This document shows positions 1,810-45,507 of a stretch of DNA of 64,000 nucleotides, one piece after another (within the stretch, counting starts at the first letter, position 1; the number at the start of each line of letters is the position of its first letter). The stretch covers positions 1,430-65,429 of the forward strand of contig JAHJQO010000033.1 in the NCBI GenBank assembly GCA_018819305.1. Direction: 5' to 3'. The notes beneath the pieces are model-generated. The model did no database searches. It saw nothing but the letters and a program-made list of their open reading frames with translations, and was not told the origin of the DNA. Position numbers and translations under genes: made by a program. This DNA comes from Nanobdellota archaeon. GTDB taxonomy: Archaea; Nanobdellota; Nanobdellia; Woesearchaeales; SM23-78.

Positions 1810-2796
1810 ATGGAAACTCATTTAAAAACCAACATTTCACTGTTAGCTATGATCAATGATGCAAAGAAAAAAGACCTTGAAAAACAAGGATATAGAATAA
1901 TTGGCAATCATTCAGCAATCAAAGTATGCTTGTGGTGCAAAAAAAGCATCAGAGATGAAGGAACTTGCTATAAGCAAAAGTTTTATGGTATTAATTCCCA
2001 TAGATGCGTGCAAATGACTCCGAGCCTGCCTTTTTGCACTCTGCGATGTTGCTGGTGCTGGAGAGACATTGAACATACAATCCCGAAATGGATAGGACCA
2101 ATTGATTCTCCAAAAAAAATTGTTGATGAATGCATTAAAGCTCATGTAAAGTTTTTGCAGGGCTTTGGCGGAAATGTAAAATCAGATAAAAAAAAATATT
2201 CAGAAGCACAAAAACCTTTGCACTTTGCAATTAGTTTAGCAGGAGAGCCAACACTTTACCCTAAACTGCCTGAGCTTATCAAAGAGATACATGCTCAAGG
2301 CATGAGCTCATTTCTAGTTACTAATGGCACAAACCCTGAAATGCTGGAAAAAATAAAAACAAATCCACCCACACAATTATATATAACACTTCCTGCACCA
2401 AATGAATTAATTTTCATGAAGATGTGTTCTCCGCTTATCAAAGGCTTATGGCAAAACATAATTCAATCTCTTAAACTAATGAAAGGATTAAAAGACAAAA
2501 CTCGCACAACCATAAGACTTACATTAGCCAAAGATGTTAATATGCTTCATCCAGAACAATATGCAGAACTTATTAAAATCGCAGACCCTTTGTTTGTTGA
2601 AGTCAAAGCCTATATGCATGTCGGATATTCAAAAAAACGTCTTGAGATTGGAAACATGCCTATTCATTCTGAAATAAAAGAATTTGCAAATCAGCTTGCT
2701 AAGCATCTGGATTATAAATATATAGACGAGCAAATACCTTCAAGAGTTGTTTTGTTGATGAAAAAAGATGTAAAAGATAGGAAGATGGAATTCTAG
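1810..2796 (+). CDS. taw1: tRNA 4-demethylwyosine synthase (radical SAM, Taw1/TYW1)
   Basis: 328 aa. N-terminal ...GYRIIGNHSAIKVCLWCKKS...CYKQKFYGINSHRCVQMTP... plus the radical-SAM cluster motif CTLRCCWCWR, followed by LAGEPTLYP, are characteristic of archaeal Taw1. Confidence 0.9.
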   Translation: METHLKTNISLLAMINDAKKKDLEKQGYRIIGNHSAIKVCLWCKKSIRDEGTCYKQKFYGINSHRCVQMTPSLPFCTLRCCWCWRDIEHTIPKWIGPIDSPKKIVDECIKAHVKFLQGFGGNVKSDKKKYSEAQKPLHFAISLAGEPTLYPKLPELIKEIHAQGMSSFLVTNGTNPEMLEKIKTNPPTQLYITLPAPNELIFMKMCSPLIKGLWQNIIQSLKLMKGLKDKTRTTIRLTLAKDVNMLHPEQYAELIKIADPLFVEVKAYMHVGYSKKRLEIGNMPIHSEIKEFANQLAKHLDYKYIDEQIPSRVVLLMKKDVKDRKMEF

Positions 2797-2799
2797 AAA

Positions 2800-3231
2800 A
2801 TGCAGCATTTAGCCATACTTAGAAAATCCTGGAAGCTTGCCCAAAAAATTCTTTCTGGGGAAAAAAAGATAGAATCCAGATGGTACAATGCAAAATATGC
2901 TCCATGGGATAGAATAAAAAAAGGAGATATAATTTATTTCAAGAATTCAGGGGAACCTGTGACTATAAAAGCAGAAGTAAGAAAAGTAATTCAATTTTCA
3001 GGGCTAACTCCTTCAAAAGTCAGGATGATTCTAGATGAGCATCATTCAGGGCTTGGTATTCCTAAAGCAACATTATCTAAATTTGTTGAGCGCTTTAAAA
3101 ATAAAAATTACTGTGTGCTTATTTTCTTGAATAATCCTCAAAAAATCAAGCCTTTTGATATTGACAAGAAAGGATTTGGATTGATGTCTGCATGGATAAC
3201 TATTGATGATTTAAATAAGATTAAAAGGTGA
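2800..3231 (+). CDS. ASCH (PUA-like fold) domain protein
   Basis: 143 aa. The pattern ILSGEKKIESRW...KKGDIIYF...VTIKAEVRKV matches the ASCH signature (I-x-G-x-K-x-E-x-R, then GD-x-I). It starts 3 nt after the taw1 stop, so it is probably co-transcribed. Confidence 0.6.
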   Translation: MQHLAILRKSWKLAQKILSGEKKIESRWYNAKYAPWDRIKKGDIIYFKNSGEPVTIKAEVRKVIQFSGLTPSKVRMILDEHHSGLGIPKATLSKFVERFKNKNYCVLIFLNNPQKIKPFDIDKKGFGLMSAWITIDDLNKIKR

Positions 3232-3271
3232 ATTTCTAAGAACAGATTTTTAAAACAAAAAATTTATAAAC

Positions 3272-3934
3272 TTGATAGTGATAACACATAATGAATTACA
3301 GGTGATAAAAATAATTAATCCATTTTCCAGCAGGGAAATTAAGAAAAGAATTCTTTTAAGAACTGCCAGACATAAAAAGAAACTAGCAATAACTGAGGAC
3401 AAAGAAAGAATAACTGACCGGAAGAGAGATCCTTCTTTTGAATACAGGTGGTTTGGCACATCATATCACAATTCAAGTATTAACTGGTTAGATGCAGGAA
3501 GAGGTTATTTCGAAGCTGCAGAATTAACTTTAAAGTCATGTTCTCAGCAAAGAAGGTATGCAAAAGCATTATCCTGTTATAAACATTTTTTTGTAGATCG
3601 TTTTCAATTAGAAAATATTATTGAAAAAGACACCTCCCGGATAATCGCAACAGTTTTGAGAGAGCCAATAGACATTACAGATCATTTTGGAAGATTATAC
3701 AATATTGCACAACAAATGAAAAATGAAAAATTGACGGAAATCACATCTAAAATATTAACTCATGCTCCTAATATGAATGTGGAAGGATCTTTAGAAGATT
3801 ACATAAACAAAACGCTACCTAAACCTGGTGAAGGAGTGATTTCAAATCCAGTTAAAAGACTTTATTTTAATCTCCTTTGGTCTTTTGGTTTTTATAATTC
3901 GGCTTTGTCTTTAAAACGTGCAAATGACAAATAA
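3272..3934 (+). CDS. Hypothetical protein
   Basis: 220-aa ORF from the track (apparent non-ATG start). I recognise no motif. The start is uncertain because the first 120 aa contain no internal Met. Confidence 0.35.
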   Translation: MIVITHNELQVIKIINPFSSREIKKRILLRTARHKKKLAITEDKERITDRKRDPSFEYRWFGTSYHNSSINWLDAGRGYFEAAELTLKSCSQQRRYAKALSCYKHFFVDRFQLENIIEKDTSRIIATVLREPIDITDHFGRLYNIAQQMKNEKLTEITSKILTHAPNMNVEGSLEDYINKTLPKPGEGVISNPVKRLYFNLLWSFGFYNSALSLKRANDK

Positions 3935-3957
3935 GTTCGCCAATCAATTACTTCTAT

Positions 3958-4545
3958 CTAAACCTCAATCAACTTACCTTGATGGCCGGCATTAATTACT
4001 ATTGTTTTGCCAATCTTGTCCTGGGCACCGTCATTTTCATGCAGATGACCGCAGATAACTATCATTGGCTTTTCTTCTTTTATGAATTTTGTGTAGCTCT
4101 TGTTGCCTGCGTGCTCTCCGAGAATCATGTCTGTCTTGTTGCCATACGGCGGGCCGTGAAATACCATGACTAGTTTTTTCCCTTCTTTTTTCTTTATGAT
4201 TTTTTCTGCAAACTTTTCAAACTCCTTGTCTGTCAAAGCAAATCCTCCTCCGCCATATCCGACAAAAAGGATGTTTTCTTTTTCATAGAAATCCTTGTGA
4301 AAATAAATAAGGTTATTGTGTTTTTTGCATGCTTCTCTAAGTCTTTCTTCTGACTCGTGGTTTCCGTGCAGAACAAGAACAGGCTTGTTAAAGCTGTCTA
4401 TTTCTTTAAGCATCTTGCTCATATGGCCTTCAAAAATAGTCATGTCACCAGCACAAATAACAAGGTCTGCCTTGGCTGATTTTTTCTTGAGTTTTTTCAG
4501 AGCATTAACATCTCCGTGCGTGTCTACAAATGCGAGTATTATCAT
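3958..4545 (-). CDS. Metallophosphoesterase (calcineurin-like, YfcE/MJ0936-type)
   Basis: 195 aa with the full motif set: DTHGD, AGD, GNHES, FHGPP and GHLHEN. Confidence 0.85.
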   Translation of the reverse strand: MIILAFVDTHGDVNALKKLKKKSAKADLVICAGDMTIFEGHMSKMLKEIDSFNKPVLVLHGNHESEERLREACKKHNNLIYFHKDFYEKENILFVGYGGGGFALTDKEFEKFAEKIIKKKEGKKLVMVFHGPPYGNKTDMILGEHAGNKSYTKFIKEEKPMIVICGHLHENDGAQDKIGKTIVINAGHQGKLIEV

Positions 4546-4588
4546 TTTAGATACTTAATATTTTGTTTTGATTTTTAAATTTTTAGTA

Positions 4589-5542
4589 TTATTCTTCAAT
4601 ATCTCTTGGAAGATAGTATTCTTTGTCAATATTGTCAATCTGTATTGACCAGTATTCCTCTATTGAAAACCTGGACCTGAGCTCTTTGATGAGGTCATTG
4701 TTTTTTATGCTTTCAATAATAAGAATTATGTGGTAGTCACCTATTATTTTGATTTGTTCAATTATATTCAGGTTCCTGATTCCAAACTCCACTAGCTTGT
4801 TGATTTCACCAACACCAATTCCTGATAATTTAAGAAGCAGGAGTGATCTGTTGATTCCCAGCGCCTTGTGGTTCAGAATGCAGCTGTATCCTCGGATTAT
4901 TCTGAGTTTTTCCAGTTTTTTCTTGATGTTAATAACGCTTTTGACAGAGATTTTGGTGGATTTGGCAATAGATGTATAGCTTGCAGTGGGTGTTTTGATT
5001 AGTTCTTTGAGAATGCTTTTTTCATTTGTTGATAATATGTTGACCTCCCTGTCACCGCAGATAACAATATCTGTGCCTGTACAATGTTCGATAAGATAGC
5101 ACCTGTCATGCTTGTGCTTTACAACAATTGGAAATATGAACTTGGTTTTTACTGTATGGTGTAATTTGTGTATAATTTCAGAATGTATTTTATTGAATGC
5201 AGAAAGGTTTTGGACGCAATATTCAACAATAAAATCAACACCGCGGGATGCTTCTTTGATTGATATGATTGAGTTTGTGTTTTTTAAAACATCTATTACT
5301 TCTGCCCTGATTTTTGCATCAAATTTTACATAGTTGAAGCCCACTATTATGTTTATGAATCCGAGCTTAATCGGGTCTACAATAGTTATTTCATTTTTGA
5401 CAAGTTTCTTCTTTTTAAGCTGGTGGATGATGTATGAAGCTGACTGCTGGCTGGACTTAATATGCTTGCTTAATTCTTTTGTAGATATTCTGATGTTACT
5501 TGAGAGGAGAAAAATAGCATTTTTCAATTTTTTCTTAATCAT
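4589..5542 (-). CDS. Duplicated Lrp/AsnC-like transcriptional regulator (two HTH + ligand-domain modules)
   Basis: 317 aa. Two repeats of a winged-HTH segment (ISTKELSKHIKSSQQSASYIIHQLKKKKLV; ASYTSIAKSTKISVKSVINIKKKLEKLRII) are each followed by a beta-alpha-beta-like segment typical of the Lrp RAM domain. It is divergent from the 5698..9524 operon. Confidence 0.55.
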   Translation of the reverse strand: MIKKKLKNAIFLLSSNIRISTKELSKHIKSSQQSASYIIHQLKKKKLVKNEITIVDPIKLGFINIIVGFNYVKFDAKIRAEVIDVLKNTNSIISIKEASRGVDFIVEYCVQNLSAFNKIHSEIIHKLHHTVKTKFIFPIVVKHKHDRCYLIEHCTGTDIVICGDREVNILSTNEKSILKELIKTPTASYTSIAKSTKISVKSVINIKKKLEKLRIIRGYSCILNHKALGINRSLLLLKLSGIGVGEINKLVEFGIRNLNIIEQIKIIGDYHIILIIESIKNNDLIKELRSRFSIEEYWSIQIDNIDKEYYLPRDIEE

Positions 5543-5697
5543 ATTTGGTAGAATTGGACTAAGTTTATAAATAACTTTTCATTTTAACCAATATATTTCT
5601 CGAAATTTTTATATTTTAGTTGTGTGTTTTGATGTATTCAGAGTAAAGTTATAGGTATACATAGACTTTTCTGATCAGAAACACTGGGTGGGCTTGA

Positions 5698-6633
5698 ATG
5701 GAATCCGATTTAGATAAAATTGTCTATATGTCTGTAGAAGAAGGGTTTTTAGAATCTTCTCAAGATTCATATTTGACTAGCAAAAGAATAGTTCGAAAAA
5801 TTAGTGAATTAGTAACTCTTTTTTTAGTCCATCCTGCAGATTATGATTTAAATTCTATGAAAATAAAGAATGTTTATCTCTTTGAGGGGGAGAAATTAAA
5901 GCAAGAGAAAAATTCACATATTCCTCAAGGAGATATGTTTATAATATACGGTGATGAGACGTCAAAGAACGTCGGGCTTGATTTTGGAAGAAGCCAGTAT
6001 GCATTTTTAAAGAAACTACAAGAACAAGGCAATTTCAAACATTTTTTCAACACGCCTCAAGCAGAAGAAAACACAATGAAAGATGCATTGGTTGAGTTTT
6101 CAAAAAACCATATTCTGCAGATTGCAGATACATTTCGTTTTAATGATTATGAAACAACAGAGGATATGCTTCATAAGTATGGTTCACTGGTTCTGAAACC
6201 CATATTTGGATGCAGGGGATCTGGTGTGCATCTAATACATCGTTTGGATGATCTGCAAAAACTTGATGTAGGATTGGATTTTATTAAAGGAAACTATGTA
6301 TTGCAGGAGCCTTTGCAAGGTCCTGAGAAAAGATTGGTGCTTTTAGGAGGGTCTCTTCTTTGTTCTAGGGTTCATTATAATAGAAAAACACCCTGGAATC
6401 AGGATAATAAACAGGAAACTTATGTTTATACTCCTTCAGATAGGGAACTGGAGCTCTCTCAGAAAATAGCAGAAAAAGCAGGTTTAGAATTGGCAGGGAT
6501 AGATTTCATCGGTGAAAAGGTGAATGAGATAAATGGCACGGGAAGTGGTTTGGTCATCTATAATCATCATAATGAGCTTTTGTATGATAAATCAGATGCT
6601 TTTGTTCAAAGGGTAATTAGCAATTTAAAATGA
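5698..6633 (+). CDS. ATP-grasp ligase (glutathione synthetase/RimK-like)
   Basis: 311 aa. LVLKPIFGCRGSGVHLI (P-loop-like ATP-grasp motif), YVLQEPLQGPEKRLVLLGGSLL and GLELAGIDFIGEKVNEINGTGSG align by eye to GshB/RimK core motifs. Confidence 0.7.
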   Translation: MESDLDKIVYMSVEEGFLESSQDSYLTSKRIVRKISELVTLFLVHPADYDLNSMKIKNVYLFEGEKLKQEKNSHIPQGDMFIIYGDETSKNVGLDFGRSQYAFLKKLQEQGNFKHFFNTPQAEENTMKDALVEFSKNHILQIADTFRFNDYETTEDMLHKYGSLVLKPIFGCRGSGVHLIHRLDDLQKLDVGLDFIKGNYVLQEPLQGPEKRLVLLGGSLLCSRVHYNRKTPWNQDNKQETYVYTPSDRELELSQKIAEKAGLELAGIDFIGEKVNEINGTGSGLVIYNHHNELLYDKSDAFVQRVISNLK

Positions 6634-7715
6634 GGAAAATAACTGTTGTTGGAGCTGGTAAAGGAGGTCATGCAATAGCAGGTTATACAGCTCTTCTGGG
6701 TAATGAAGTAACTTTGCTTACACATACTAAAAGAAAAGCTGATATAATGAAAGAACGAAATAATCAGATACTGCTGCAGGGTATTATTAATGGAGAAGCA
6801 CAGCTTAAAGAAACTACGATGAATGTCGAAAGTGCTGTAAGAGACAGCGAGTTAATATTTATTGTTACTGATGCTACTGCGCATCAAGCATATGCAAAAA
6901 AAATGGCTCCTTATCTCCAGAATCAAAAAGTGATTCTTATCTCGCCTGGTGTTGGCGGTGCGCTAGAATTTTATAAGATTATTAAAGAATTCAATCCAGA
7001 AGCAGATGTTACTGTTAGCGAGACAGATACTTTGATATATGCATGTAACGTTCCTCAGATTGGCGAATCTCATATAAAAGCACAAAAAAACAGCATTATT
7101 TTCACAACCATGCCTGAAAATAAATCAATAGAATCTGAAATACAAAGGTTATATCCTCAATTTAAGGATGTGAATGAACCTTTAATGGGAGTTGATGACA
7201 GTCCTGTGTTCCATATCTGCGGAATGATATTTAATGCAGACCGAATTAACAAAAAAGAAGATTTCAATTTCTATATTGATGGAATCACACCCGACGTAGC
7301 CAGATATATGGAGGAAATGGATGAAGAAAGATGTGAAATTGCAAAAGCTTTAGGGATTTCATACAGACCTATAAAACAATGGCTTAATATTGTATATGGC
7401 GTTCCTGTATCTGATTTATACATGATGATTCAGCATACACCTCCTTATCAGAATACTCTGGAAATGCCCAATAGAAGTCCTGCGCCAAAAAGTTTAATCC
7501 ACAGATATCTTATAGAAGAAATTCTTTTAAGAGCAGTGCCAACTTCATCTATTGGTAAAGCTTTGGAAATAGAAACCCCCAAATACGATGAGATGATACA
7601 AAGAGCCACAGATCTGACAGGGATTAATTTCCGGGAACAAGGAAGAAAAATAGAAGACATGGGCTTAAATCAAGAGCAGATAATTAACTGGAAATATAGA
7701 ACGAGAAATATATGA
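6630..7715 (+). CDS. Opine dehydrogenase family oxidoreductase (Octopine_DH; NAD(P)-dependent)
   Basis: 361 aa. Has the Rossmann motif VVGAGKGGHAIAGY. LISPGVGGALEFYKIIKE, YIDGITPDVARYMEEMDEERCEIAKALG and REQGRKIEDMGL track the Arthrobacter opine dehydrogenase sequence as I recall it. ATGA overlap with the upstream gene. Confidence 0.8.
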   Translation: MRKITVVGAGKGGHAIAGYTALLGNEVTLLTHTKRKADIMKERNNQILLQGIINGEAQLKETTMNVESAVRDSELIFIVTDATAHQAYAKKMAPYLQNQKVILISPGVGGALEFYKIIKEFNPEADVTVSETDTLIYACNVPQIGESHIKAQKNSIIFTTMPENKSIESEIQRLYPQFKDVNEPLMGVDDSPVFHICGMIFNADRINKKEDFNFYIDGITPDVARYMEEMDEERCEIAKALGISYRPIKQWLNIVYGVPVSDLYMMIQHTPPYQNTLEMPNRSPAPKSLIHRYLIEEILLRAVPTSSIGKALEIETPKYDEMIQRATDLTGINFREQGRKIEDMGLNQEQIINWKYRTRNI

Positions 7716-7755
7716 AGAGGACTGTATCGGTATTGTAATTGGTGTTTATGTAAAA

Positions 7756-8682
7756 ATGATGAATATTGGCTATCTTGCTGTCGGGGAAATTAAAAAGGAA
7801 TTTATGTTTGATGATAAAGGAGATGCTGGTATTGCAAAAGCACTTGCAAATAATCATGAAGTTTATGCTTTTTCACAAGAACAGACTGATGGGGATTTTG
7901 TTTATGAAGCATATAGTGTCAGCAGAGGAAAAAGAGTTACAGTAAGAAAACAAATGAATGATTTTTTAGACGTCCTTTTTATTGCTGGTTTTCGAAAACC
8001 TAATGAGAATCGAGATGAGGTATATGATTTTATGCGAGTTATGGACAACATAGATATTCCTGTTATAAACCCGCCTGATAATTTCTTTTCTTTAGATGAT
8101 AAAAAATATCTTTTTCGATTGCAAGAAAAAGGCATTCCCTTTCCAAAGACAGAATTGGTTTCTTCTAAAGATGGATTAATTAATTTAATTTCCTCTGCTA
8201 CGCAAGAGCACAAGATTATTGTAAAACCAGTTAGAGGACAGGGCGGCAAGGGAATAGAGCGTTTTCCCGGCGGAGATGAAGAACTTATTCTGTCTTTTTT
8301 ACAAGAACAAAAAGAAGTTTTTGTCCAGACTTATATTCCTGAAATTGTTAATGGAGAAATTAATGTTATTTGTTTTGATTATGATATTAAGTATGCTATA
8401 AAAAAAGTTCCTAAGGATTTTCTTTCAAACTGGGCGCACGCATCCAGAGTAGAAGAAACTGAATTAAATGAAGATGATAAAGAATTTGTTATGAACATTC
8501 TTAGTTCAGAAGAATTTCTGCCTAAGGTAACGAGAGTTGATTTCGTAAGAACATATGCCAGCCCGTTTTTAATGGAGATTTCTGCAAATCGCCCAGCTCT
8601 TTACTCAACTGTAATCAATGGAGGCCCTGTAAGGGTGGCGAAGTATCTTGAAGATTTATTAAAAAGGGAAGTTTTCAGATGA
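7756..8682 (+). CDS. ATP-grasp ligase, GshB-like architecture
   Basis: 308 aa. IIVKPVRGQGGKGIERF, VFVQTYIPEIVNGEINVICFDYD and TRVDFVRTYASPFLMEISANRP parallel E. coli GshB IILKPLDGMGGASIFR / AQNYLPAIKDGDKRVLVVDG / VGLDIIGDRLTEINVTSP. Confidence 0.7.
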   Translation: MMNIGYLAVGEIKKEFMFDDKGDAGIAKALANNHEVYAFSQEQTDGDFVYEAYSVSRGKRVTVRKQMNDFLDVLFIAGFRKPNENRDEVYDFMRVMDNIDIPVINPPDNFFSLDDKKYLFRLQEKGIPFPKTELVSSKDGLINLISSATQEHKIIVKPVRGQGGKGIERFPGGDEELILSFLQEQKEVFVQTYIPEIVNGEINVICFDYDIKYAIKKVPKDFLSNWAHASRVEETELNEDDKEFVMNILSSEEFLPKVTRVDFVRTYASPFLMEISANRPALYSTVINGGPVRVAKYLEDLLKREVFR

Positions 8683-9524
8683 AGACATGCCAATTAATTG
8701 CACCATCAAGAAAAATCAGCAAGAAAAAACTTGAACAGGCAGTTAAAAACCTGAAAGCATTGGGTTTTCATGCAATTTATGATAAAAATATTCTTGATAG
8801 AGACTGTTATCATGCAGGCACTGTCAGCAGACGGGTTGAGGAAATTCATAAAGCCTTCCAGAATAAAAAGGTGAATTTTATTTTCTCTGTTACAGGAGGG
8901 TATGGTTGTATTGAGTTGCTGCCTTTTTTGAATTATGATTTGATTAAATCCAATGCTAAACCTTTGGTGGGTTACAGCGATATTACTGGATTATTACTTG
9001 GATTATTCAAAAAGACAAAAATCCCCCTGATTCACAGTCCTATGCCAGGTTCTAAATACTTTTCTTTAAAAAATAAATATTTGAAACAACTCGATGATTG
9101 TTTAAATGGTAAGAAACATGCTATTAGAATAAATTCAAAAAACATTGTTAGAAAACAATTTTTTCGAGGTAATATTGTCGGGGGAAATCTGAGGATTTTA
9201 ATTTCTCTAATAGGAACGCCTTATGAATTAGATACAAACAATAAGGTTTTGTTTTTAGAGGATGCGAATGAGAGGCCAGCAGCTATTTATAATATGCTGC
9301 TTCATCTAGAACTTTCTGGTAAGTTAAAAAATATTAAAGCTTTGATTCTAGGAAAAATGAATCAATGCGGAAAATATAAAACATTATTGATGAAATTTTT
9401 GAAAAGATTGAATGTTCCGATTATTTGTGATTTGGATTTAGGCCATTCCCAAAATATGATTTCTATAAGGCTGGGTTCAAAAATTACATTTGACACTGAA
9501 AACAGTTGTTTAATCTTTAATTAA
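8679..9524 (+). CDS. S66 family LD-carboxypeptidase (LdcA/MccF-like)
   Basis: 281 aa. Nucleophile motif VGYSDITGLL, acidic motif LFLEDANERP and DLDLGHS give the Ser-Glu-His arrangement of peptidase S66. ATGA overlap with the upstream ATP-grasp gene. Confidence 0.8.
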   Translation: MKTCQLIAPSRKISKKKLEQAVKNLKALGFHAIYDKNILDRDCYHAGTVSRRVEEIHKAFQNKKVNFIFSVTGGYGCIELLPFLNYDLIKSNAKPLVGYSDITGLLLGLFKKTKIPLIHSPMPGSKYFSLKNKYLKQLDDCLNGKKHAIRINSKNIVRKQFFRGNIVGGNLRILISLIGTPYELDTNNKVLFLEDANERPAAIYNMLLHLELSGKLKNIKALILGKMNQCGKYKTLLMKFLKRLNVPIICDLDLGHSQNMISIRLGSKITFDTENSCLIFN

Positions 9525-9567: not shown

Positions 9568-10794
9568 TCAAACCGAATAATAATCCTCCAGAATAACAGT
9601 ATCAAGGTTCTCAAGGTTCTTGACTTTGTAAACTCTGCCTTGGCTTATCTCTATCATTCTCTTGGCCAGCTTTTCTCCGTCTTTGTCAAGATTGATTCCA
9701 ATGATTGATATTGTGATGTTCTGGTCTCTTGCCATGCTCACAGCCCGCAAGGTGTCAGTTTCTGGTTTTTTACCTTTTGTAGGAATAACATCAGTAAGAA
9801 GAATCAAATGCTTGGTTTCTTTTGCATTGCCAAAAACTTCAATTGCTTTTTCAATTGTTTTTGCAATGTCTGTCTCTGATCTGGCTCTTATGCTTGTGAT
9901 GCTCATTAGTATGTCATTAAAGTCAAGTGTAGGTGGAACAATTTTTTTTACATCATCTCCAAAAACAATAAGTCCAACTTTATTCTTCTCTGCAATGGCT
10001 TTGTAAGCAAGTGCAACTCCTGCTCTTTTGCCAGTTCCGAGCTTGTTGCCTTTCATGCTTCCGCTTGCATCAAGAGCATATATAATGCTGATTCCTCCTT
10101 TTCTTTCTCTTTCAAAAATCCTGAGGTCTTCTTTTTGCAGCTGCTTGTGCTGCCTTCGGATGGCAGTCTTTACACTCTGCCTGATAGCAATATCCCTATA
10201 TCTTGTCTTTTTGTAAGCATGATAATCTTTTTTATCACCATAAATATCTTTTTTCTTTTCTTTTTTTTCTCCTAATCCTTTAATTTTTAATTTGTCAAGT
10301 TCTTCTGTGTAAAGAATAAGCGAACTTAATTTCAAGCCCTGTTCTGTGATTTCTCCTTCTTTGTTAACTAATTCTTTTTGCTTTAGCTTTTTGACATTCT
10401 CATCAATTCTTTTTTTAATCTCTTCCTGAAACTCAGGAATCTTAATGTTTTTTTCAACAAAGCCAGGCTCATAGCCGCTCAGCTGCCGGATGATAACTTC
10501 ACCATATAATTGTTTAGCAAGTTTATAATCATTAACAAGGTTTTTGAATATCATGTCAGGAACAAAACTAGAAAGATTTTGATTAATACTCTCACTCAGG
10601 AGTTTGCCGTCATCAATTGTTTCTTTGTCACTTTCAAGAACACTATTCATTAATTTATCTTCTTCTTTTTGCTTTGAGAGCTTGCCAGTAAGCTCTTCTG
10701 CTTCTTCAAGATTTGAAAACTTCTCTTTGCCAATTTCAGAGTCTATTGGCTCTGTGCTACCCATCACCTCCAATCTGGTTTGAGAATTTTTCAA
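9568..10794 (-). CDS. von Willebrand factor A (VWA) domain protein with long acidic/coiled N-terminal region
   Basis: 408 aa. MIDAS motif ALDASGSM, then VGLIVFGDD... and HLILLTDV in the C-terminal third. It overlaps the upstream AAA+ gene, and an alternative start at MGSTEP still overlaps. Confidence 0.8.
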   Translation of the reverse strand: MKNSQTRLEVMGSTEPIDSEIGKEKFSNLEEAEELTGKLSKQKEEDKLMNSVLESDKETIDDGKLLSESINQNLSSFVPDMIFKNLVNDYKLAKQLYGEVIIRQLSGYEPGFVEKNIKIPEFQEEIKKRIDENVKKLKQKELVNKEGEITEQGLKLSSLILYTEELDKLKIKGLGEKKEKKKDIYGDKKDYHAYKKTRYRDIAIRQSVKTAIRRQHKQLQKEDLRIFERERKGGISIIYALDASGSMKGNKLGTGKRAGVALAYKAIAEKNKVGLIVFGDDVKKIVPPTLDFNDILMSITSIRARSETDIAKTIEKAIEVFGNAKETKHLILLTDVIPTKGKKPETDTLRAVSMARDQNITISIIGINLDKDGEKLAKRMIEISQGRVYKVKNLENLDTVILEDYYSV

Positions 10795-11782
10795 ACTCCT
10801 CTTTAATATAATCCTCAGGAGATTTTAAGAATTTAACACTAGGCTTAAGACTGATTCTATGGCTCAGAACAGAAACAATAACATCCTGAACATCTTTTAC
10901 AGATACTTTGTCTTTGCCTCTGATTTTTGCATTGCTCTGAGCTCTCTCATACAATCCAATGCTTGCCCTTACACTGGGCTTTTTTTCAACATCATTATCA
11001 ATTCTTAAGTCCCTGATAAATTCAATAACATGATACAGGAGTTTTTGTGGGAATTCAATAAGATATTTTCCTGCTTTTTTTACAATTTCAAATTCTAGCT
11101 CTGCAGTTTCAGGATATTCCATGTAAATCAAGTCAAACCTGTCCAGGAATACATCACTTAGTGGCTCTGTGCTTTTGTCATCAGGATTCATGGTTCCGAT
11201 AAACAAAAAGCTCACATCAAAGTCAAATGAATAACTGCCAATTGTTATTTTGTTTTCTTCCAATACCTGAAGAAGTGCGTTTTGTAATTTCTCACTGCAC
11301 CTGTTGATTTCATCAAAAAACAAGATTCCATTGTTGGCCTTGAATATTTTTCCAGGAGTAAAAGCCTCAAGACTAAGAGGACCAAACTTCATTGCTTTTA
11401 TAGGGTCAATATCTCCAATAAGGTCTTCTGCTGTCAAGTCAGGGCTTCCCTGTATTCTTACAAATAATTCATTGCCTTTGAGAATCTTGGTCTGGATTTT
11501 CTCTTTTTTCTCTTTTTTTTCCAGACATTTAGGACATGCAGGATTATCTGTTGTGCAGTTATATCCGCAGTCAGCAACAGTTTTATCAGGCATTAGCTTG
11601 GTCACGTTCTTGGCAAGAGTTGTCTTTCCAATGCCTGGCTGGCCCACAAGAATAATGTGCCGGTCCATGAGCAGAGCTGATTTAACCTGTTGTTTAACCC
11701 TGTTCTGGCCTAATATATCGTTGAACTCAGTTTCCATAAGATTTGTTTTGAATTGTTCATTTTTGGATGTCATAGGCCTCAC
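10757..11782 (-). CDS. AAA+ ATPase, MoxR/ChlI-like, with Cys4 insertion
   Basis: 341 aa. Walker A GQPGIGKT, Walker B LFFDEINR, and GTMNPDD. A CX3CX6CX2C cluster (ADCGYNCTTDNPACPKC) lies between Walker A and B. Paired with the downstream VWA gene. Confidence 0.8.
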   Translation of the reverse strand: MRPMTSKNEQFKTNLMETEFNDILGQNRVKQQVKSALLMDRHIILVGQPGIGKTTLAKNVTKLMPDKTVADCGYNCTTDNPACPKCLEKKEKKEKIQTKILKGNELFVRIQGSPDLTAEDLIGDIDPIKAMKFGPLSLEAFTPGKIFKANNGILFFDEINRCSEKLQNALLQVLEENKITIGSYSFDFDVSFLFIGTMNPDDKSTEPLSDVFLDRFDLIYMEYPETAELEFEIVKKAGKYLIEFPQKLLYHVIEFIRDLRIDNDVEKKPSVRASIGLYERAQSNAKIRGKDKVSVKDVQDVIVSVLSHRISLKPSVKFLKSPEDYIKEEFEKFSNQIGGDG

Positions 11783-22959: not shown

Positions 22960-23895
22960 TCAATGCTTCAAGCCATCAATAATCATCTTAAGAAGAGCCA
23001 TTCTTATGTATAATCCGTTTTTTGCCTGCCTGAAATAAGCAGCTCTCTTGTCTTTATCAACTTCTGGTGTTATCTCTATCACTCTTGGCAATGGATGCAT
23101 GATTATTGCTTTTTTATTAAGTTTTTTTAATGCTGCCTTGTCAATCACATAGAAACTTTTGAGCTGATTATATTCATGTTCTGTTTTAAACCGTTCCTTT
23201 TGAACTCGTGTCATGTAAAGAACATCGACTTTGTCAAGAACCTGCTGCACATCTTCAACTTCCTCAAAAGTAATTTTTTTCTTTTTCAGGTGTTCTTTGT
23301 ATTCTTTTGGCAGCTGAAGTTTTTTTGGAGCAACTAAATAAAATTTTATTTTTTTGTAAAGAGAAAGCAGAATAAGCAAAGAGTGGATTGTTCTTCCATT
23401 GAGCAGGTCTCCTACAAGAGCAATGTTTAGATTTTCTAGTCGTCCAAGTTCTTTTTCAATAGTATATATGTCAAGCAAAGCCTGAGTGGGATGTTCTCCT
23501 GTGCCATCGCCTGCATTGATAACAGGAACTTCAGACACGTCTGCTGCTATTTTGGCAGAACCTTTTGTAGGATGCCTAAGTACAATAACATCTGCATATC
23601 CACTAATGATTTTGATTGAATCTGTCAGAGATTCTCCTTTTATTGCAGATGAAAAATGTCCTGCACTCTCTGTTGTTATAACTTCACCTCCTAGCTTGTA
23701 CATTGCTGCTTCAAAAGAAAACCTGGTTCTTGTGCTTGGCTCATAAAACACAGCCACCATTATTTTGTTTCTCAGATAGTTCGGGAGTGTGTTTGCTTTT
23801 TCCCTGCTTTCCATTTTATCAGCTAATCTGAAAATCTTGTCAAGAAGAGATGTATCTAAAAATTGTTTTGTGCTAATAATATGTCTTAAAATCAT
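22960..23895 (-). CDS. pyrB: Aspartate carbamoyltransferase catalytic subunit
   Basis: 311 aa. Motifs STRTRFSFEAA, RHP...G, HPTQALLD and HPLPR are diagnostic. Confidence 0.95.
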   Translation of the reverse strand: MILRHIISTKQFLDTSLLDKIFRLADKMESREKANTLPNYLRNKIMVAVFYEPSTRTRFSFEAAMYKLGGEVITTESAGHFSSAIKGESLTDSIKIISGYADVIVLRHPTKGSAKIAADVSEVPVINAGDGTGEHPTQALLDIYTIEKELGRLENLNIALVGDLLNGRTIHSLLILLSLYKKIKFYLVAPKKLQLPKEYKEHLKKKKITFEEVEDVQQVLDKVDVLYMTRVQKERFKTEHEYNQLKSFYVIDKAALKKLNKKAIIMHPLPRVIEITPEVDKDKRAAYFRQAKNGLYIRMALLKMIIDGLKH

Positions 23896-40191: not shown

Positions 40192-40220
40192 ACTGAAAGA
40201 TATGAATGGAGGTAAGTAAA

Positions 40221-40379
40221 ATGGCAGAATGTCCAACATGCGGAGCAAACATAACAATACCAGAAGGAACAGAAACAAACCAGATAATCACATGCCCTGA
40301 TTGTGGCAGCGAATTAGAGGTTACTGGACCAGATGCTGTGAAGCCAGCACCGCAAGAAGAAGAAGATTGGGGAGAATAA
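40221..40379 (+). CDS. lysW: Amino-group carrier protein LysW
   Basis: 52 aa, below the track cutoff: MAECPTCGANITIPEGTETNQIITCPDCGSELEVTGPDAVKPAPQEEEDWGE. Has a zinc ribbon (CPTC...CPDC) plus the canonical acidic C-terminus EDWGE. GGAGGT lies 8 nt upstream. First gene of the lys operon. Confidence 0.85.
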   Translation: MAECPTCGANITIPEGTETNQIITCPDCGSELEVTGPDAVKPAPQEEEDWGE

Positions 40380-40407
40380 GGAGAATAATTTAGGAGACAA
40401 GAAAGAA

Positions 40408-41571
40408 ATGGTGCAAATACTAGATGCAACACTGAGAGAAGGAGAACAAACTCCAGGAGTTTATTTTGATAATCATATCAAGCTCGCAATAGCTGACAGA
40501 CTGGATAAAATAGGTGTTGATTATATTGAAGCAGGACACCCTGCTGTAAGCAAAGAAATTTATCACGCAGTGAATCAGATTGCAGGCAGAAACCTGAGTT
40601 CTGTTGTTGCAGCGCATTCTCGTTCATTAAAAAAAGATGTTGATTTTGCACTGGAATGCGGAGTTGGGTTCTTAGGAATATTTTATTGTGTTTCTAATGG
40701 CAGGCTTAATGGTATTTTTGAAAAAACTTTACCATTAGCTATTGACCAAATATCAAAAACCATTGCTTATGCCAGAGAACAAAACCCTGACTTGATAATA
40801 AGATATACTCCGGAAGACACTGTCCGTTCTGAGTTCAGCAATGTTGTAGATGTTTCTGTTGCTGCTGTAAATGCAGGCGCAGACATAATCAGTGTTGCTG
40901 ACACAACGGGTTTTATGATTCCAGGAACAGAAAGAAGCATGTATGATTATGTTTCCAGATTAAGAGATGCATTTGATAAAAACAATGTTAATCCAAAGAT
41001 TGCTGTTCATTGCCATAATGACAGAGGGCTTGCGCTTGCTAATGCTCTTGATGGGTATAGGGCAGGAGCAGAAATTATTGATGCAACCATTCTTGGCATT
41101 GGAGAAAGAGCAGGCCTTGTTGACCTTGCAACTCTTCTTGCAGTTCTAAAGACAGATTTTAAGGTTGAAAATAATTGGGATTTGGCAAGGCTTCCAGAAT
41201 TATACAAACTTGTAAGTGAATATGCTAGAATTCCTATTCCAGTAAACGCTCCTATTACAGGAGCTAATGCGTTTACGCATTGCGCAGGCGTTCATACTCA
41301 TGCAGCTGCCAGCAAAAAAGGAGATCCAATTCATTATCAAAGCATATCGCCGGAAATTGTGGGAAGAGAAAGCGAAGTTTCATTAGACCATATGTCTGGG
41401 TTGAGTTCTGTAATCTGGGCATTAGAAAGAGTTGATGTACCTAATCCTGATGAAGAATTTGTAAGAAATATTCTGGAAAAAGTGAAAATAATTGGTCAGA
41501 AAAGACCAGTGAGTCTTGATGAATTAAGACATATGGTAGAATCTTGTGAAGGAGAGATGGTAAGGAGGTAG
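40408..41571 (+). CDS. Homocitrate synthase / 2-isopropylmalate synthase family (no regulatory domain)
   Basis: 387 aa. ILDATLREGEQTPGV and HCHNDRGLALANAL are DRE-TIM metallolyase motifs. The LysW-cluster context favours homocitrate synthase, but citramalate/IPM synthase cannot be excluded. Confidence 0.8.
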   Translation: MVQILDATLREGEQTPGVYFDNHIKLAIADRLDKIGVDYIEAGHPAVSKEIYHAVNQIAGRNLSSVVAAHSRSLKKDVDFALECGVGFLGIFYCVSNGRLNGIFEKTLPLAIDQISKTIAYAREQNPDLIIRYTPEDTVRSEFSNVVDVSVAAVNAGADIISVADTTGFMIPGTERSMYDYVSRLRDAFDKNNVNPKIAVHCHNDRGLALANALDGYRAGAEIIDATILGIGERAGLVDLATLLAVLKTDFKVENNWDLARLPELYKLVSEYARIPIPVNAPITGANAFTHCAGVHTHAAASKKGDPIHYQSISPEIVGRESEVSLDHMSGLSSVIWALERVDVPNPDEEFVRNILEKVKIIGQKRPVSLDELRHMVESCEGEMVRR

Positions 41572-41574
41572 AAT

Positions 41575-42429
41575 ATGACAATTAAAATAGGATTTTTGCA
41601 TTCAGTAATAAGAGTTGAGGAAAAACTTTTGCTGGATGAATTGAGAAAGAGAAAAGATGTTGAAATAGTAATGTTAGATGACAGAAAACTGGCATTTAAT
41701 CTTGGAAAGAATGGATTTGATGTGGATGTTATTATTGAGCGAAGTATTAATCATTCCAGAGCATTGCATGCATTGAGATTATTTGAAAGCATAGGTATTA
41801 AGTGCATTAATAGATATGCTGTTGCAAATATTTGCGGTGATAAGCTTCTCACATCAACTGCACTCATGGAACATAAAGTTCCTCAGCCAGAAGTAAGAGT
41901 TGCATTTACAGAAGAATCTGCTTTGCAGCAAATAGAAGAAATGGGTTATCCTGTTGTTCTCAAGCCAGCAACTGGTTCTTGGGGAAGACTTATATCCAAG
42001 GTGAATGACAGAGAATCAGCTGAATCTCTGCTTGAGCATAAGAGAATACTTGGAAGTTATCATCATTCAATATTTTACATTCAGAAATATGTCGAGAAAA
42101 AAGGAAGAGACATAAGAAGCTTTGTTGTAGGAGACAAGTGCATTGCTGCCATTTACAGAACTTCAGAGCATTGGATTACAAACACTGCCAGAGGAGGCAA
42201 GGCAACAAACTGTCCTGTAACTCCAGAACTTGCACAGATATCTTTGGCAGCAGCCAAAGCAGTTGGAGGCGGAATTGTAGCAATTGATTTGTTTGAAACA
42301 GACAAAGGATTACTTGTGAACGAAGTCAATTACACTATGGAATTCAGAAACAGCATTGACACAACAGGTGTTAATATTCCTGAGAAAATTGTTGATTATG
42401 TTTTAAAAGTTGCAGGTGAAAAAAAATGA
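41575..42429 (+). CDS. lysX: LysW--alpha-aminoadipate (or glutamate) ligase, RimK-type ATP-grasp
   Basis: 284 aa. [31 protein letters not shown] and [18 protein letters not shown] are ATP-grasp motifs. Sits in the canonical position in the cluster. Confidence 0.85.
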
Positions 42430-43466
42430 CAGAGAAAATTCGAGTTAGCATTGTTGGAGCTAGCGGATATGTGGGTGGAGAACTGCTGAGACTTTTGCTT
42501 CAGCATCCAAATGCAGAAGTTAATCAAGTTACTTCTGAGAGGTTTGCAGCAAAACCTGTAACTGTGATTCATCCGAATCTTAGAACGCAGACTGATTTAA
42601 AGTTTTGCAGTGTAAATGATTTGGAAAAAGTTGACTTGATGTTTATTGCATTGCCACATGCAAAGTTGATGAATGATTTTGACAAGTTCAGCAAGCTTGC
42701 TGAGAGAATTATTGATTTGTCAGCTGACTTTAGATTGAAAAATCCTGAGGATTACAAAGAGTGGTATGATGTTGAACATCCAAGAGCTGAGCTGTTGAAT
42801 GATTTTGTTTATGGAATTGTTGAACTGCACAGAGAAGAGATGAAAAAAGCAAACTACATTAGCAGTGCTGGATGCAATGCAACTGCAACAATCCTGCCAC
42901 TTTATCCTTTGTTTAAAAACAATCTCGTGGATTTGAGCAAGCCTGTTATTGCAGAGGCAAAGTGCGGTTCATCTGAGGGAGGAAACAAGTTTTCAGAAGC
43001 ATCACATCATCCTGAGAGAAGCGGATGTGTCAGGTCTTACAAGCCATCAGGCCACAGACATACTGCAGAAATGATTCAGGAGCTTGGCAATCAAATTAAT
43101 TTTTCAGCCACATCAATTGAAATGGTCAGAGGTATTTTGTTGACTGCTCATGTTTTTCTTAAGCAGGGTTTGACTGAGCTTGATGTTTGGAAAGCTTATA
43201 GAAAAGAATATGGTGATGAGCCATTCATTAGAATTGTCAAGGAAAGAACAGGAATCTATAGGTATCCTGAGCCAAAGATTTTATCAGGAAGCAATTTCTG
43301 TGATATAGGTTTTGCTCTTGATGAAAAAACGGGGCGGCTTGTAGTAATTGGGGCTATTGATAATCTGATGAAAGGAGCAGCAGGTCAGGCAGTGCATGCA
43401 ATGAATGTGATGCTTGGTTTTGATGAGAAGATGGGTTTAGAATTTATGGGGTTGCATCCAATATGA
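42426..43466 (+). CDS. lysY: [LysW]-aminoadipate/glutamate 6/5-phosphate reductase (ArgC family)
   Basis: 346 aa. [16 protein letters not shown], catalytic SSAGCNATA, and [12 protein letters not shown]. Confidence 0.9.
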
Positions 43467-43473
43467 GGTTAAA

Positions 43474-44277
43474 ATGATTGTTATAAAAGTTGGCGGAGCA
43501 CTTGGAATCAATTATGATTTATTTTTGCAGGACCTTGCAGGACTTGTAAAAAATAAGAATCAGGAGATTGTGCTAGTCCATGGTGGCTCAGGAGAACTTA
43601 ATGAGATATCAACCAAACTTGGCAAGCCACCTAAAATGGTGACATCTGCATCAGGCCATGTTTCCCGCAGGACAGATAAAGAGACTCTTGAGATTTTTAA
43701 TATGGTTCTTTGCGGCAAGATGAACAAGATGATTGTTGAGAAACTGCAGCAGCTTGGAGTAAATGCAATTGGCTTGAGTGGAATAGATGGCAGACTGTTG
43801 GTTGGTAAGAGAAAAAACATAATTATTGTTGAAGATGGTAAAAAGAAAATTATTCGTGATGATTATACTGGAAAAATTGAAGAGGTTAATGTTGATTTGA
43901 TTCGATTGCTGCTTGGCAATGGTTTTATGCCAGTAATTACACCGCCAGGTTTAAGCTATGAGAATGAAGCAATTAATGTTGATGGTGACAGAGCAGCTGC
44001 AATTATTGCAAGCTCACTCAAAGCAGAAGCATTGGTTATTTTGTCAAATATTCCTGGCCTGCTTAAAGATGTTGATGATGAGAGCAGTCTGATTAAAGAG
44101 ATTAATAAAGAAGAGATTGACGATTACATGCAGTTTGCTAAGAAGAGGATGAAGAAAAAAGTTATGGGAGCAACAGAAGCACTGAATCAGGGCGTGCAGA
44201 AAGTTATTTTTGGTGATGCAAGAATTGAGAATCCAATAACAAAAGCTCTTGAAGGGCAAGGAACTGTGATACAATGA
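43474..44277 (+). CDS. lysZ: [LysW]-aminoadipate/glutamate kinase (ArgB family)
   Basis: 267 aa. Amino-acid kinase fold: IVIKVGGA, VLVHGGS, INVDGDRAAA. Confidence 0.85.
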   Translation: MIVIKVGGALGINYDLFLQDLAGLVKNKNQEIVLVHGGSGELNEISTKLGKPPKMVTSASGHVSRRTDKETLEIFNMVLCGKMNKMIVEKLQQLGVNAIGLSGIDGRLLVGKRKNIIIVEDGKKKIIRDDYTGKIEEVNVDLIRLLLGNGFMPVITPPGLSYENEAINVDGDRAAAIIASSLKAEALVILSNIPGLLKDVDDESSLIKEINKEEIDDYMQFAKKRMKKKVMGATEALNQGVQKVIFGDARIENPITKALEGQGTVIQ

Positions 44278-45494
44278 GCAAGACAAAATCCACAAAACAA
44301 ATTGAAGAACAGTTTGAATTAGATATTTATCCAAGAAGAGAGGTTGTTATAGTCAGAGGCAAAGCTAGCAAGTTGTATGATGATAAGGACAGGGAATATA
44401 TTGACTGTGCTTCAAATGTTGGCGTATCTAATATAGGGCATGCTAATGAACAGGTTGCAACTGCAATTCATGAGCAATATCTAAGGTTGGCAAATTGCTA
44501 TAGTATGTTTTATAATGATATCAGAGCAAGGTTTGCACAGAAATTAGTTGAGATAATGCCGCATTTCAATAATAATGGTAATAAAAATGGTAATGGCAAT
44601 GGAAATGGCCAACTAAGCAAAGTTTTTTTCTGTAATTCAGGTTCAGAAGCAGTAGAAGCAGCAATTAAGTTTGCAAGAGCAACAACAGGAAAAAAACAAA
44701 TCATTTGTGCAATGAGAGGATTTCACGGCAAAACCATGGGTGCTTTAGCTGCAACATGGGGTCCTGAATATCAAAAGCCATTCATGCCAATGCTTGAAGG
44801 ATTTGTACATGTTCCTTTTAATAATTATGATAGGTTTGAAAAATCAGTTAGTGATGACACTGCTGCCGTTATAGTTGAAGTTGTGCAGGGTGAAGGAGGA
44901 GTAAGGCCTGCAGATAAAGAATATCTAAAAAAGCTCAGCCAGTTTTGCAGGGCAGTTGGCATCTTGCTGATTGTTGATGAAGTGCAGACTGGTTTTGGAA
45001 GAACAGGAAAAATGTTTGCATCAGAGCATTATGATATTTCACCTGATATATTATGTCTGGCTAAATCAATTGCTGGCGGAATTCCAATGGGAGCAGTGGT
45101 TTGCAAGGAAAAAATAATTGTTCCTAAGAGGAGTCACACGTCTACATTTGGTGGAAATCCTTTGGCATGTGCAGCAGCACTTGCATCAATTGATTTTATT
45201 GAAAAAGAGAATTTAGTTGAAAGAGCTGCTGAGTTAGGTGAATATTTTATTGAAAAGCTAAGTGAGATAAAAAGCCCTAAGATAAAAGAAATAAGAGGGA
45301 TTGGATTAATGATTGGTATTGAGCTGACTGAAAAAGCAGGACCTTATGTTGCAGCGCTAATGGAGATGGGTGTGATTGCTTTGCTTGCAGGCAACTTTGT
45401 AATCAGATTATTACCACCTCTTGTTATCAGCAAAGAAGAAATTGACAAAGTAGTTGATGCTCTAGGAGATGTTTTGCAGGAGCAAGAGGATTAA
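44274..45494 (+). CDS. lysJ: [LysW]-aminoadipate semialdehyde / acetylornithine aminotransferase (class III PLP)
   Basis: 406 aa. FFCNSGSEAVEAA, LIVDEVQTGFGRTGK and TSTFGGNPLACAA. Contains an Asn/Gly low-complexity insert, NNNGNKNGNGNGNG, at nt 44568..44609. Confidence 0.9.
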   Translation: MSKTKSTKQIEEQFELDIYPRREVVIVRGKASKLYDDKDREYIDCASNVGVSNIGHANEQVATAIHEQYLRLANCYSMFYNDIRARFAQKLVEIMPHFNNNGNKNGNGNGNGQLSKVFFCNSGSEAVEAAIKFARATTGKKQIICAMRGFHGKTMGALAATWGPEYQKPFMPMLEGFVHVPFNNYDRFEKSVSDDTAAVIVEVVQGEGGVRPADKEYLKKLSQFCRAVGILLIVDEVQTGFGRTGKMFASEHYDISPDILCLAKSIAGGIPMGAVVCKEKIIVPKRSHTSTFGGNPLACAAALASIDFIEKENLVERAAELGEYFIEKLSEIKSPKIKEIRGIGLMIGIELTEKAGPYVAALMEMGVIALLAGNFVIRLLPPLVISKEEIDKVVDALGDVLQEQED

Positions 45495-45507
45495 AGGAGG
45501 CTTGAAA

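Follow-up and report, generated by a model that had tools for sequence, protein, structure and literature searches.

An archaeal operon pairing a GshB-like ATP-grasp ligase with an opine dehydrogenase, a candidate route to an opine-type pseudopeptide

To our knowledge, opine chemistry has so far been known from crown-gall plasmids, invertebrate muscle and bacterial metallophores. In the staphylopine, pseudopaline and yersinopine systems (CntK-CntL-CntM), an amino-acid conjugate is built and then capped with a 2-oxo acid by an NADPH-dependent opine dehydrogenase. Here we analysed a 64,000-nucleotide stretch of contig JAHJQO010000033.1 from a Nanobdellota archaeon (the window), in which four genes on one strand encode two ATP-grasp ligases (A and B), an opine dehydrogenase (ODH) and an S66 serine peptidase (S66). 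Building and capping would be combined here as in the metallophore systems; unlike CntKLM, the cluster lacks a nicotianamine-synthase-like CntL, a racemase and any dedicated exporter or importer, and the building enzyme is an ATP-grasp ligase. Our reading of the operon, to which we give somewhat less than an even chance, is that it uses ATP and NAD(P)H to make a small N-carboxyalkyl (opine-type) pseudopeptide and hydrolyses this product in a controlled way. Its features are as follows.

4589..5542, minus strand: Lrp2, tandem-duplicated Lrp/AsnC-type regulator, 317 aa, divergent from the operon (open reading frame (ORF) call, Pfam, NCBIfam)
5543..5697: divergent intergenic spacer, 155 bp, 28% GC (read from the sequence)
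5698..6633, plus strand: ligase A, predicted GshB-type ATP-grasp amide ligase, 311 aa
6630..7715, plus strand: ODH, CENDH-type opine dehydrogenase, 361 aa
7756..8682, plus strand: ligase B, predicted divergent RimK-type ATP-grasp ligase, 308 aa
8679..9524, plus strand: S66 serine peptidase of LdcA-like architecture, 281 aa

Direct reading of the sequence shows an ATGA start/stop overlap coupling ligase A to ODH at 6630 and another coupling ligase B to S66 at 8679, with 40 bp (7716-7755) between ODH and ligase B. The initial annotation had described four same-strand genes with both overlaps, this gap, the 155-bp spacer and a divergent double-Lrp gene, and the ORF list and the sequence place every one of them where it was claimed.

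ODH is a true opine dehydrogenase by family membership, in both sequence and structure comparison, and has kept its active-site residues. It matches Octopine_DH (PF02317) at 6.7e-32 (111 bits against a cut-off of 30, Pfam) and aligns over its full length (residues 4-347) with CENDH, the N-(1-D-carboxyethyl)-L-norvaline dehydrogenase of Arthrobacter sp. 1C (1bg6; 30% identity, 2e-46), on which its AlphaFold2 model (pLDDT 95.3) superposes with a TM-score of 0.87-0.90 and a root-mean-square deviation of 2.0 A (Foldseek). The best 14 PDB matches of the model are all opine dehydrogenases (TM 0.69-0.87), with CntM-type structures as clear structural relatives at 0.70-0.75; ketopantoate reductase and mandelate dehydrogenase (0.5-0.64) and glycerol-3-phosphate (G3P) dehydrogenase (0.43-0.54) rank lower. 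A ketopantoate reductase or G3P dehydrogenase identity, the error to which the original opine dehydrogenase call was exposed, is ruled out by the 1bg6 match and the Foldseek ranking, and the call holds. ODH falls far below the CntM equivalog NF033600 (20.8 bits against a cut-off of 675). H195, R292 and E296 do not vary among the DPANN and bacterial homologues, and H195, R292 and E296/E297 align with the His, Arg and acidic positions that are catalytic in CENDH according to the structural literature.

ODH therefore shares with CENDH its two-domain architecture and active-site positions along with full-length homology. The DPANN clade differs by a 7-residue insertion (..PNRS) directly before the PAPK..HRY active-site segment and by the end of strand beta2, which reads T-H-T-K-R-K in ODH (T-H-T-x-x-K being conserved in the clade) against D-I-D in CENDH. 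Since this end has no acidic residue, the usual Rossmann-fold rule suggests NADPH as the cofactor, a signature that would fit the biosynthetic direction. A further difference from CENDH, from Ti-plasmid ocs and from the bacterial relatives examined is that ODH is encoded here with an ATP-grasp ligase.

In a word-index search of 5.8 billion proteins, the ODH clade comprised 24 full-length clusters at 47-100% identity, plus 2 fragment matches. Bacterial homologues at 26-37% identity (L006-L010 and others of L016-L047) came from Thermotogae, Halanaerobiales, Synergistales and others, and precede either a gene for a ~540-aa B12-binding-domain protein or a second ODH copy ~1.2 kb downstream; ODH with the B12-binding protein is a separate and apparently uncharacterised gene pair. 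Among the bacterial relatives examined, ODH was never paired with ligase A or S66, and as members of a different subfamily with different neighbours they were set aside as a functional guide. Plasmid matches to ODH were Ti-plasmid ocs-type genes and Bacillus genes adjoining transporters, and the same plasmid set held no ligase A homologue.

Ligase A belongs to the ATP-grasp enzymes of the GshB/RimK type by its GSH-S_ATP match (2.7e-8, 33.9 bits against a cut-off of 23, Pfam), its ATP-binding Lys and its Mg2+ ligands D...E-x-N; an alignment of 17 family members shows no variation at K167, Q203/E204, D269, E277 or N279. The initial annotation had recognised ATP-grasp cores in both ligases, and Pfam agrees, returning GSH-S_ATP for A and B and RimK for B. 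A PDB sequence search with ligase A gave no match, while Foldseek with its AlphaFold2 model (pLDDT 93.8) gave the best TM-score, 0.70, to E. coli GshB (1gsa), followed by ArgX and DcsG, at ~15% identity. The motifs of ligase A and GshB are collinear (N-x-P...K, KP-x-G-x-x-G, Q-E, D-x-I-G-x-x-x-x-E-I-N). Unlike GshB, ligase A has invariant N-terminal motifs specific to its family (YMSVEEGF and IIYGDETSKN), is accompanied by no gamma-glutamylcysteine ligase and scores well below the glutathione synthetase equivalogs (TIGR01380, 37.9 bits against 299; NF003573, 30.8 against 272). By Foldseek E-value its top matches were PsnB, MdnC, RimK and ArgX, with PsnB and RimK likewise at ~15% identity. A graspetide system, or another making a ribosomally synthesised and post-translationally modified peptide, was ruled out by PsnB and MdnC TM-scores below that of GshB and by the lack of a precursor ORF; a 133-142-aa protein conserved beside the cluster in four related lineages is missing from the window.

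The family is small. Ligase A gave 18 clusters at 90% identity in the word-index search, and an exhaustive hidden Markov model search of 1.84 billion representatives returned 9 close representatives (<1e-77) and a second tier of full-length relatives scoring 1e-50 to 1e-30. The census of loci stays small because a metagenome scan with the ligase A profile yielded no more than 6 loci, of which 4 belong to the clade. Ligase A is the component common to all clusters and founds a small family restricted to DPANN.

Its second-tier relatives appear, from their gene contexts, to belong to assemblies of small-molecule ligases throughout. At L052 (3198-6939), an operon runs Asp/Glu racemase, RimK-type ligase, GSP_synth-type ligase and distant ligase A relative, and looks like a system for a ligase-built peptide containing a D-amino acid. 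At L053 (4090-6945), a GT4 glycosyltransferase and a PIG-L deacetylase precede the distant relative, an arrangement that follows the three-step logic of bacillithiol and mycothiol synthesis, except that the third enzyme is an ATP-grasp ligase. An acidobacterium (L054) carries ATP-grasp_4 with a ligase A-like gene. In a soil bacterium (L060, 601-5069), an aspartate dehydrogenase gene adjoins three ATP-grasp genes that include a distant ligase A relative, a second instance of a reductive aminating dehydrogenase paired with several ligases. The multi-ligase settings at L052, L053 and L060 count in favour of the pseudopeptide reading.

Related loci were gathered by exact-protein look-ups, a species-representative genome scan and a metagenome scan, and the five window proteins were mapped onto them by tblastn. 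Removal of duplicates left 11 lineages of the clade including the window, with ODH at least 47% identical, arranged as follows (B', ligase B counterpart).

Window: Lrp2 divergent, A-ODH-B-S66
L001/2: A-ODH-S66 and a C39-like peptidase
L003/4/11/56: A-ODH-S66
L012: A-ODH-S66
L048/55: A-ODH-S66
L050: A-ODH-S66, with double-AsnC and RelA/SpoT genes upstream
L005/13: A-ODH-B'
L049/57: A-ODH-B'
L014/15 and L044: Lrp2 divergent, A-ODH only
L058: A-ODH, then contig end
L051: divergent ligase A directly followed by S66, no ODH

Ligase A and ODH are adjacent in 10 of the 11 lineages, S66 is present in 7 and ligase B in 3. Leaving out L058, the two core genes overlap by 4 nt in five lineages and lie 2-11 nt apart in four; S66, where present, often overlaps its neighbour as well. 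Since the flanks of L001, L003, L005, L012 and L050 are entirely different, the cluster travels as a unit. In the window (synteny at 1810-4545), L048 and L049, the cluster follows the same two genes, Taw1 (a wyosine radical SAM enzyme) and a Metallophos phosphoesterase, with B and S66 in the window, S66 alone in L048 and B' alone in L049, which shows that modules have been gained or lost at one fixed position in the chromosome. The conserved unit is the ligase A-ODH pair, and B and S66 are optional modules, S66 frequent and B occasional. The clade is rare and was seen only in DPANN-type contigs.

The four genes had initially been taken as a co-occurring set. They do co-occur in related genomes, but all four stand together only in the window, and it is the pair that is conserved. 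Of the overall interpretation, all four enzyme assignments stood in Pfam and NCBIfam; the quartet as a conserved unit did not, and only 3 lineages have the Lrp-like gene with the cluster. This bears on whether the genes might be chance neighbours in a compact genome, serving no common pathway. DPANN genomes are dense, ATGA overlaps of unrelated genes are common, and the quartet as such is confined to the window; adjacency of A and ODH nevertheless persists down to 49% (ODH) and 39% (ligase A) identity to the window proteins in at least five genomic surroundings, and ligase A is essentially never found apart from ODH or S66. Chance packing is highly improbable, and because the adjacency recurs in 10 independent loci with unrelated flanks, the A-ODH arrangement is shown to be more than chance.

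S66 matches both Peptidase_S66 (3.7e-31, 108 bits) and S66C (7.8e-29, 101 bits) in Pfam. The GYSD, LEDxxE and GH motifs on which its assignment was originally based correspond to S100, E194 and H256, and this triad is invariant in 7 orthologues, so that the assignment stands. A profile built from these seven orthologues gave the muramoyltetrapeptide carboxypeptidase 6uuk as its best PDB match (6.5e-47) in one collinear stretch; single-sequence matches to MccF were split in two. The protein is like LdcA and MccF (family S66) in having both domains and a Ser-Glu-His triad, and is collinear with LdcA. Unlike LdcA, it belongs to an archaeon with no murein pathway seen within the window and scores far under the equivalog cut-off (NF008424, 136.3 bits against 378); unlike both, it is operon-linked to ligases and not to a murein recycling or microcin C cluster. 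S66 is an optional but frequent module, and its position in L051, where it directly follows a divergent ligase A and ODH is missing, ties it to the chemistry of ligase A.

The kinship with a muramoyltetrapeptide LD-carboxypeptidase, its best solved relative, would also suit salvage or catabolism, in which S66 trims D-Ala-terminated or murein-derived peptides taken up from bacterial debris or a host, ODH oxidises opine-like compounds and the ligases re-use the pieces. Plasmid-borne bacterial ODH relatives adjoin transporters and regulators, a catabolic-looking context, and DPANN archaea depend in general on scavenged building blocks. We nevertheless consider such a route unlikely: three lineages keep A-ODH without S66, two ATP-consuming amide ligases would be unexpected in degradation, the beta2 end of ODH suggests NADPH and not NAD+, no uptake transporter is linked to the cluster, and none of the bacterial catabolic ODH loci examined holds a ligase A relative.

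Ligase B matches GSH-S_ATP (5e-13, 49 bits) and RimK (4.8e-11, 43 bits against a cut-off of 21) in Pfam, and MptN (2.8e-16), rimK_fam (3.8e-16) and DcsG (3.5e-13) in NCBIfam, all three below their cut-offs; for TIGR00768 it reaches 59.3 bits against a subfamily cut-off of 143.4. It resembles the RimK/MptN/CofF alpha-L-glutamate ligases in its RimK domain match and in the retained RimK-like DF(L/R/K)SN motif, which reads DF(L)SN in ligase B and EGDFRSN in the L005 counterpart, the latter as in E. coli RimK. It departs from that family, besides its subfamily score, at the E-x-N metal motif, which reads E-I-S-A-N at residues 274-278 and E-(M/I)-T-A-E in the counterparts of L049 and L005, proteins of 28-30% identity that fill the equivalent slot. 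Conservation of this Asn to Ser/Thr change looks like a functional variant rather than decay. In the word-index search ligase B matched only itself. The pairing of a ligase with a peptidase has a precedent in RimK proteins fused to a retropepsin-like PF05618 peptidase domain; the partner here is S66 instead.

Such RimK-type motifs in ligase B, together with Foldseek E-values that place ligase A closest to PsnB, RimK and ArgX, could point to C-terminal modification of a protein or carrier, for example of a LysW type, with both ligases adding residues as RimK or LysX does, ODH modifying the tethered residue and S66 releasing or trimming it. The window does hold a complete lysW-lysXYZJK operon:

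40206-46533, plus strand: LysW-type amino-carrier operon (lysW, homocitrate synthase, LysX, LysY/ArgC, LysZ/ArgB, LysJ/ArgD and the M20 peptidase LysK)

In the LysW pathway, moreover, a carboxypeptidase, LysK, releases the product. The cluster itself has no small conserved ORF, and no small carrier or precursor gene lies in or beside it at any locus; the only lysW (40206-40379; 57 aa, a zinc ribbon with the C-terminus EEEDWGE) belongs to that separate operon, at a distance of 31 kb and together with a dedicated LysX. Pairwise comparison of ligases A and B with this LysX and with one another gave no significant similarity, ligase A has its highest TM-score with GshB, a small-molecule ligase, and the alpha-amino group required by an opine dehydrogenase would be blocked in a LysX-type linkage. 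Modification of a protein or carrier thus appears very unlikely.

The preferred reading, synthesis and controlled hydrolysis of an opine-type pseudopeptide, builds on family memberships, intact catalytic residues and gene linkage, from which we infer substrates, step order, product and role. In a first step, ODH would reductively join an amino group and a 2-oxo acid to give a roughly dipeptide-sized imino-diacid in which one centre is L and the other D. Ligase A would then make an amide bond on this small molecule, adding an amino acid to the opine carboxylate; alternatively, it might build a dipeptide that is afterwards capped by ODH. Ligase B, where present, would add a further C-terminal residue, S66 would remove the C-terminal residue for turnover, pool control or self-protection, and an amino-acid-sensing Lrp-type regulator would control the operon in some lineages. 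GshB itself extends a dipeptide-sized acid at its carboxylate by one amino acid. We favour ODH acting before ligase A, since an opine would be a dipeptide-sized di-acid of the kind GshB-type enzymes activate, and since IIYGDETSKN, nearly invariant in the ligase A family, reads IIFSDGSNRN in L051, where the ODH partner is lacking. S66 as a frequent partner, with the RimK-peptidase fusions as precedent, suggests controlled turnover rather than a fixed linear step.

As far as we know, the characterised opine dehydrogenases all create a D centre, and we speculate that one made by ODH would give an L-D junction of the kind recognised by S66 enzymes. A more specific proposal, possible but in our view doubtful, is that the product represents an unknown class of archaeal metabolite, a short peptide built by ATP-grasp ligases on an N-(D-1-carboxyalkyl) opine scaffold and trimmed at its L-D junction in the manner of LdcA, serving as a dedicated solute, chelator or envelope component. 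The opine scaffold would then be a nitrogen analogue of the D-lactyl handle that bears the stem peptides of murein.

Several observations weigh against the pseudopeptide reading. The four-gene set occurs only in the window, and because B and S66 look like alternatives elsewhere, a single linear four-step pathway is not required. L051 has ligase A and S66 without ODH. Ligase B, which has almost no relatives and not the canonical Asn of E-x-N, is of uncertain activity, judging from its sequence. Overlapping genes are common in compact DPANN genomes, and overlap alone is weak evidence of shared function. No transporter or exporter consistently adjoins the cluster in the window and the related loci, so that a role as a secreted metallophore or antibiotic is unsupported. 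Only one locus has a metal transporter after the cluster, and no CntL- or nicotianamine-synthase-like gene was found in the window cluster or the 10 related loci; neighbouring genes lend the metallophore analogy no support.

Neighbours that occur in a single lineage and do not recur, namely a K+ channel (L003), a ZIP transporter (L012), an aminotransferase (L044) and RelA/SpoT (L050), hint in different directions on the physiological role. The first of these bears on a role of ODH as a terminal fermentative enzyme, as in marine invertebrates, with the ligases making a retained anionic, K+-balancing solute. Invertebrate opine dehydrogenases re-oxidise reduced cofactor in anaerobic glycolysis, the K+ channel gene follows S66 in L003/L011, and the samples include marine and saline settings, judged by record names. 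The cofactor signature of ODH suggests NADPH, however, and not glycolytic NADH, and the channel gene neighbours the cluster in one lineage only. We regard a redox valve or compatible solute as quite unlikely; it would also be a physiological role compatible with the pseudopeptide reading and not a different mechanism.

Upstream of the operon, Lrp2 has two separate helix-turn-helix (HTH) regions in Pfam, HTH_24 and HTH_Crp_2, with HTH_AsnC-type also matching, and its residues 10-133 and 175-296 each match near-full-length Lrp models in NCBIfam, below the equivalog cut-offs. These matches bear out the earlier description of a duplicated Lrp-like regulator: Lrp2 consists of two complete Lrp-like halves, each with the HTH and ligand-binding (RAM) domain of the Lrp/AsnC family. 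L014/L015 have an orthologue (44% identity) in the equivalent divergent slot, and in L050 a double-AsnC gene of 318 aa stands upstream of the cluster; given its presence in only those lineages and the window, Lrp2 is an optional partner of the cluster. The spacer holds one palindromic TATA-like TTTATAAA at 5564-5571, whose distance of 22-29 nt from the Lrp2 ATG, on its 5' side, would suit a leaderless transcript. The spacer also carries a Shine-Dalgarno-like GGTGGG, 7-12 nt ahead of the ligase A start. The spacer had been described as TATA-containing, and the element is present; because 0.44 such matches are expected by chance per 155 bp (33% GC window), TTTATAAA proves little, being by itself weak and not significant evidence.

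A 133-142-aa protein with no Pfam family and a faint winged-helix hint, 75-83% identical between lineages, has its gene next to A-ODH in four lineages; in two of them the gene lies downstream, in the other two upstream and divergent:

L048, 5490-5906, plus strand: 133-142-aa neighbour
L049, 8971-9399, plus strand: 133-142-aa neighbour
L003, 6292-6693, minus strand: 133-142-aa neighbour
L012, 5295-5687, minus strand: 133-142-aa neighbour

It is absent from the 64-kb window, where the Lrp-like gene takes the divergent slot, and may be an alternative regulator. In L050, a long RelA/SpoT-type (p)ppGpp synthetase/hydrolase gene (3964-5952) lies directly upstream of the cluster on the same strand, preceded by the double-AsnC regulator.

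Typically archaeal genes elsewhere in the window (Taw1, an archaeal CCA-adding enzyme, PAC2 and LysW) agree with the archaeal host proposed at the outset, and ODH and ligase A are 100% identical to proteins of a Nanoarchaeota (DPANN) metagenome-assembled genome. DPANN genomes are usually described as lacking amino-acid biosynthesis, and a complete LysW operon in one of them is unexpected; its GC content is 0.37-0.39 against 0.33 elsewhere in the window, and neither homoaconitase nor homoisocitrate dehydrogenase was seen in it. Two further features were noted.

22960-23895, minus strand: aspartate/ornithine carbamoyltransferase family gene
9568-11782, minus strand: MoxR-type AAA+ ATPase and VWA-domain protein genes, overlapping each other at 10757-10794 and convergent to the cluster

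Taken with the LysW operon, the carbamoyltransferase gene hints that this archaeon metabolises Orn/Arg or Lys; basic amino acids are what the classical opines (octopine, lysopine, octopinic acid) are built from. MoxR AAA+ and VWA proteins are a common chaperone-like pair, and here they are not conserved beside the cluster in other loci.

The gene set had been put forward as belonging to no described pathway, and no characterised cluster with it was found in NCBIfam, PADLOC, the plasmids or the literature searched. A known anti-phage defence system was likewise rejected, PADLOC matching none of the four enzymes. Literature searches on opine dehydrogenase, opine or octopine together with ATP-grasp, LD-carboxypeptidase or DPANN/Woesearchaeota gave no paper, the survey of Iyer et al. 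2009 lying outside their coverage, and none was found on ATP-grasp with LD-carboxypeptidase or MccF; in papers on opine dehydrogenase and 'archaeal', titles and abstract openings showed no link to the gene set. Judged by profile scores, each enzyme falls in a known superfamily and none reaches the cut-off of a named equivalog or subfamily (GshB, the RimK subfamily, LdcA, CntM). Within the profile libraries and literature searched, the cluster is an undescribed, lineage-restricted combination of known chemistries.

If the pseudopeptide reading is true, opine chemistry would be extended to the archaea, S66 'LD-carboxypeptidases' would gain a non-murein substrate, and the GshB-like ligases would include a newly defined family acting on a new substrate. 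Given the near-complete loss of biosynthesis commonly attributed to DPANN archaea, a conserved operon that costs them ATP and reducing power is probably important for their lifestyle.

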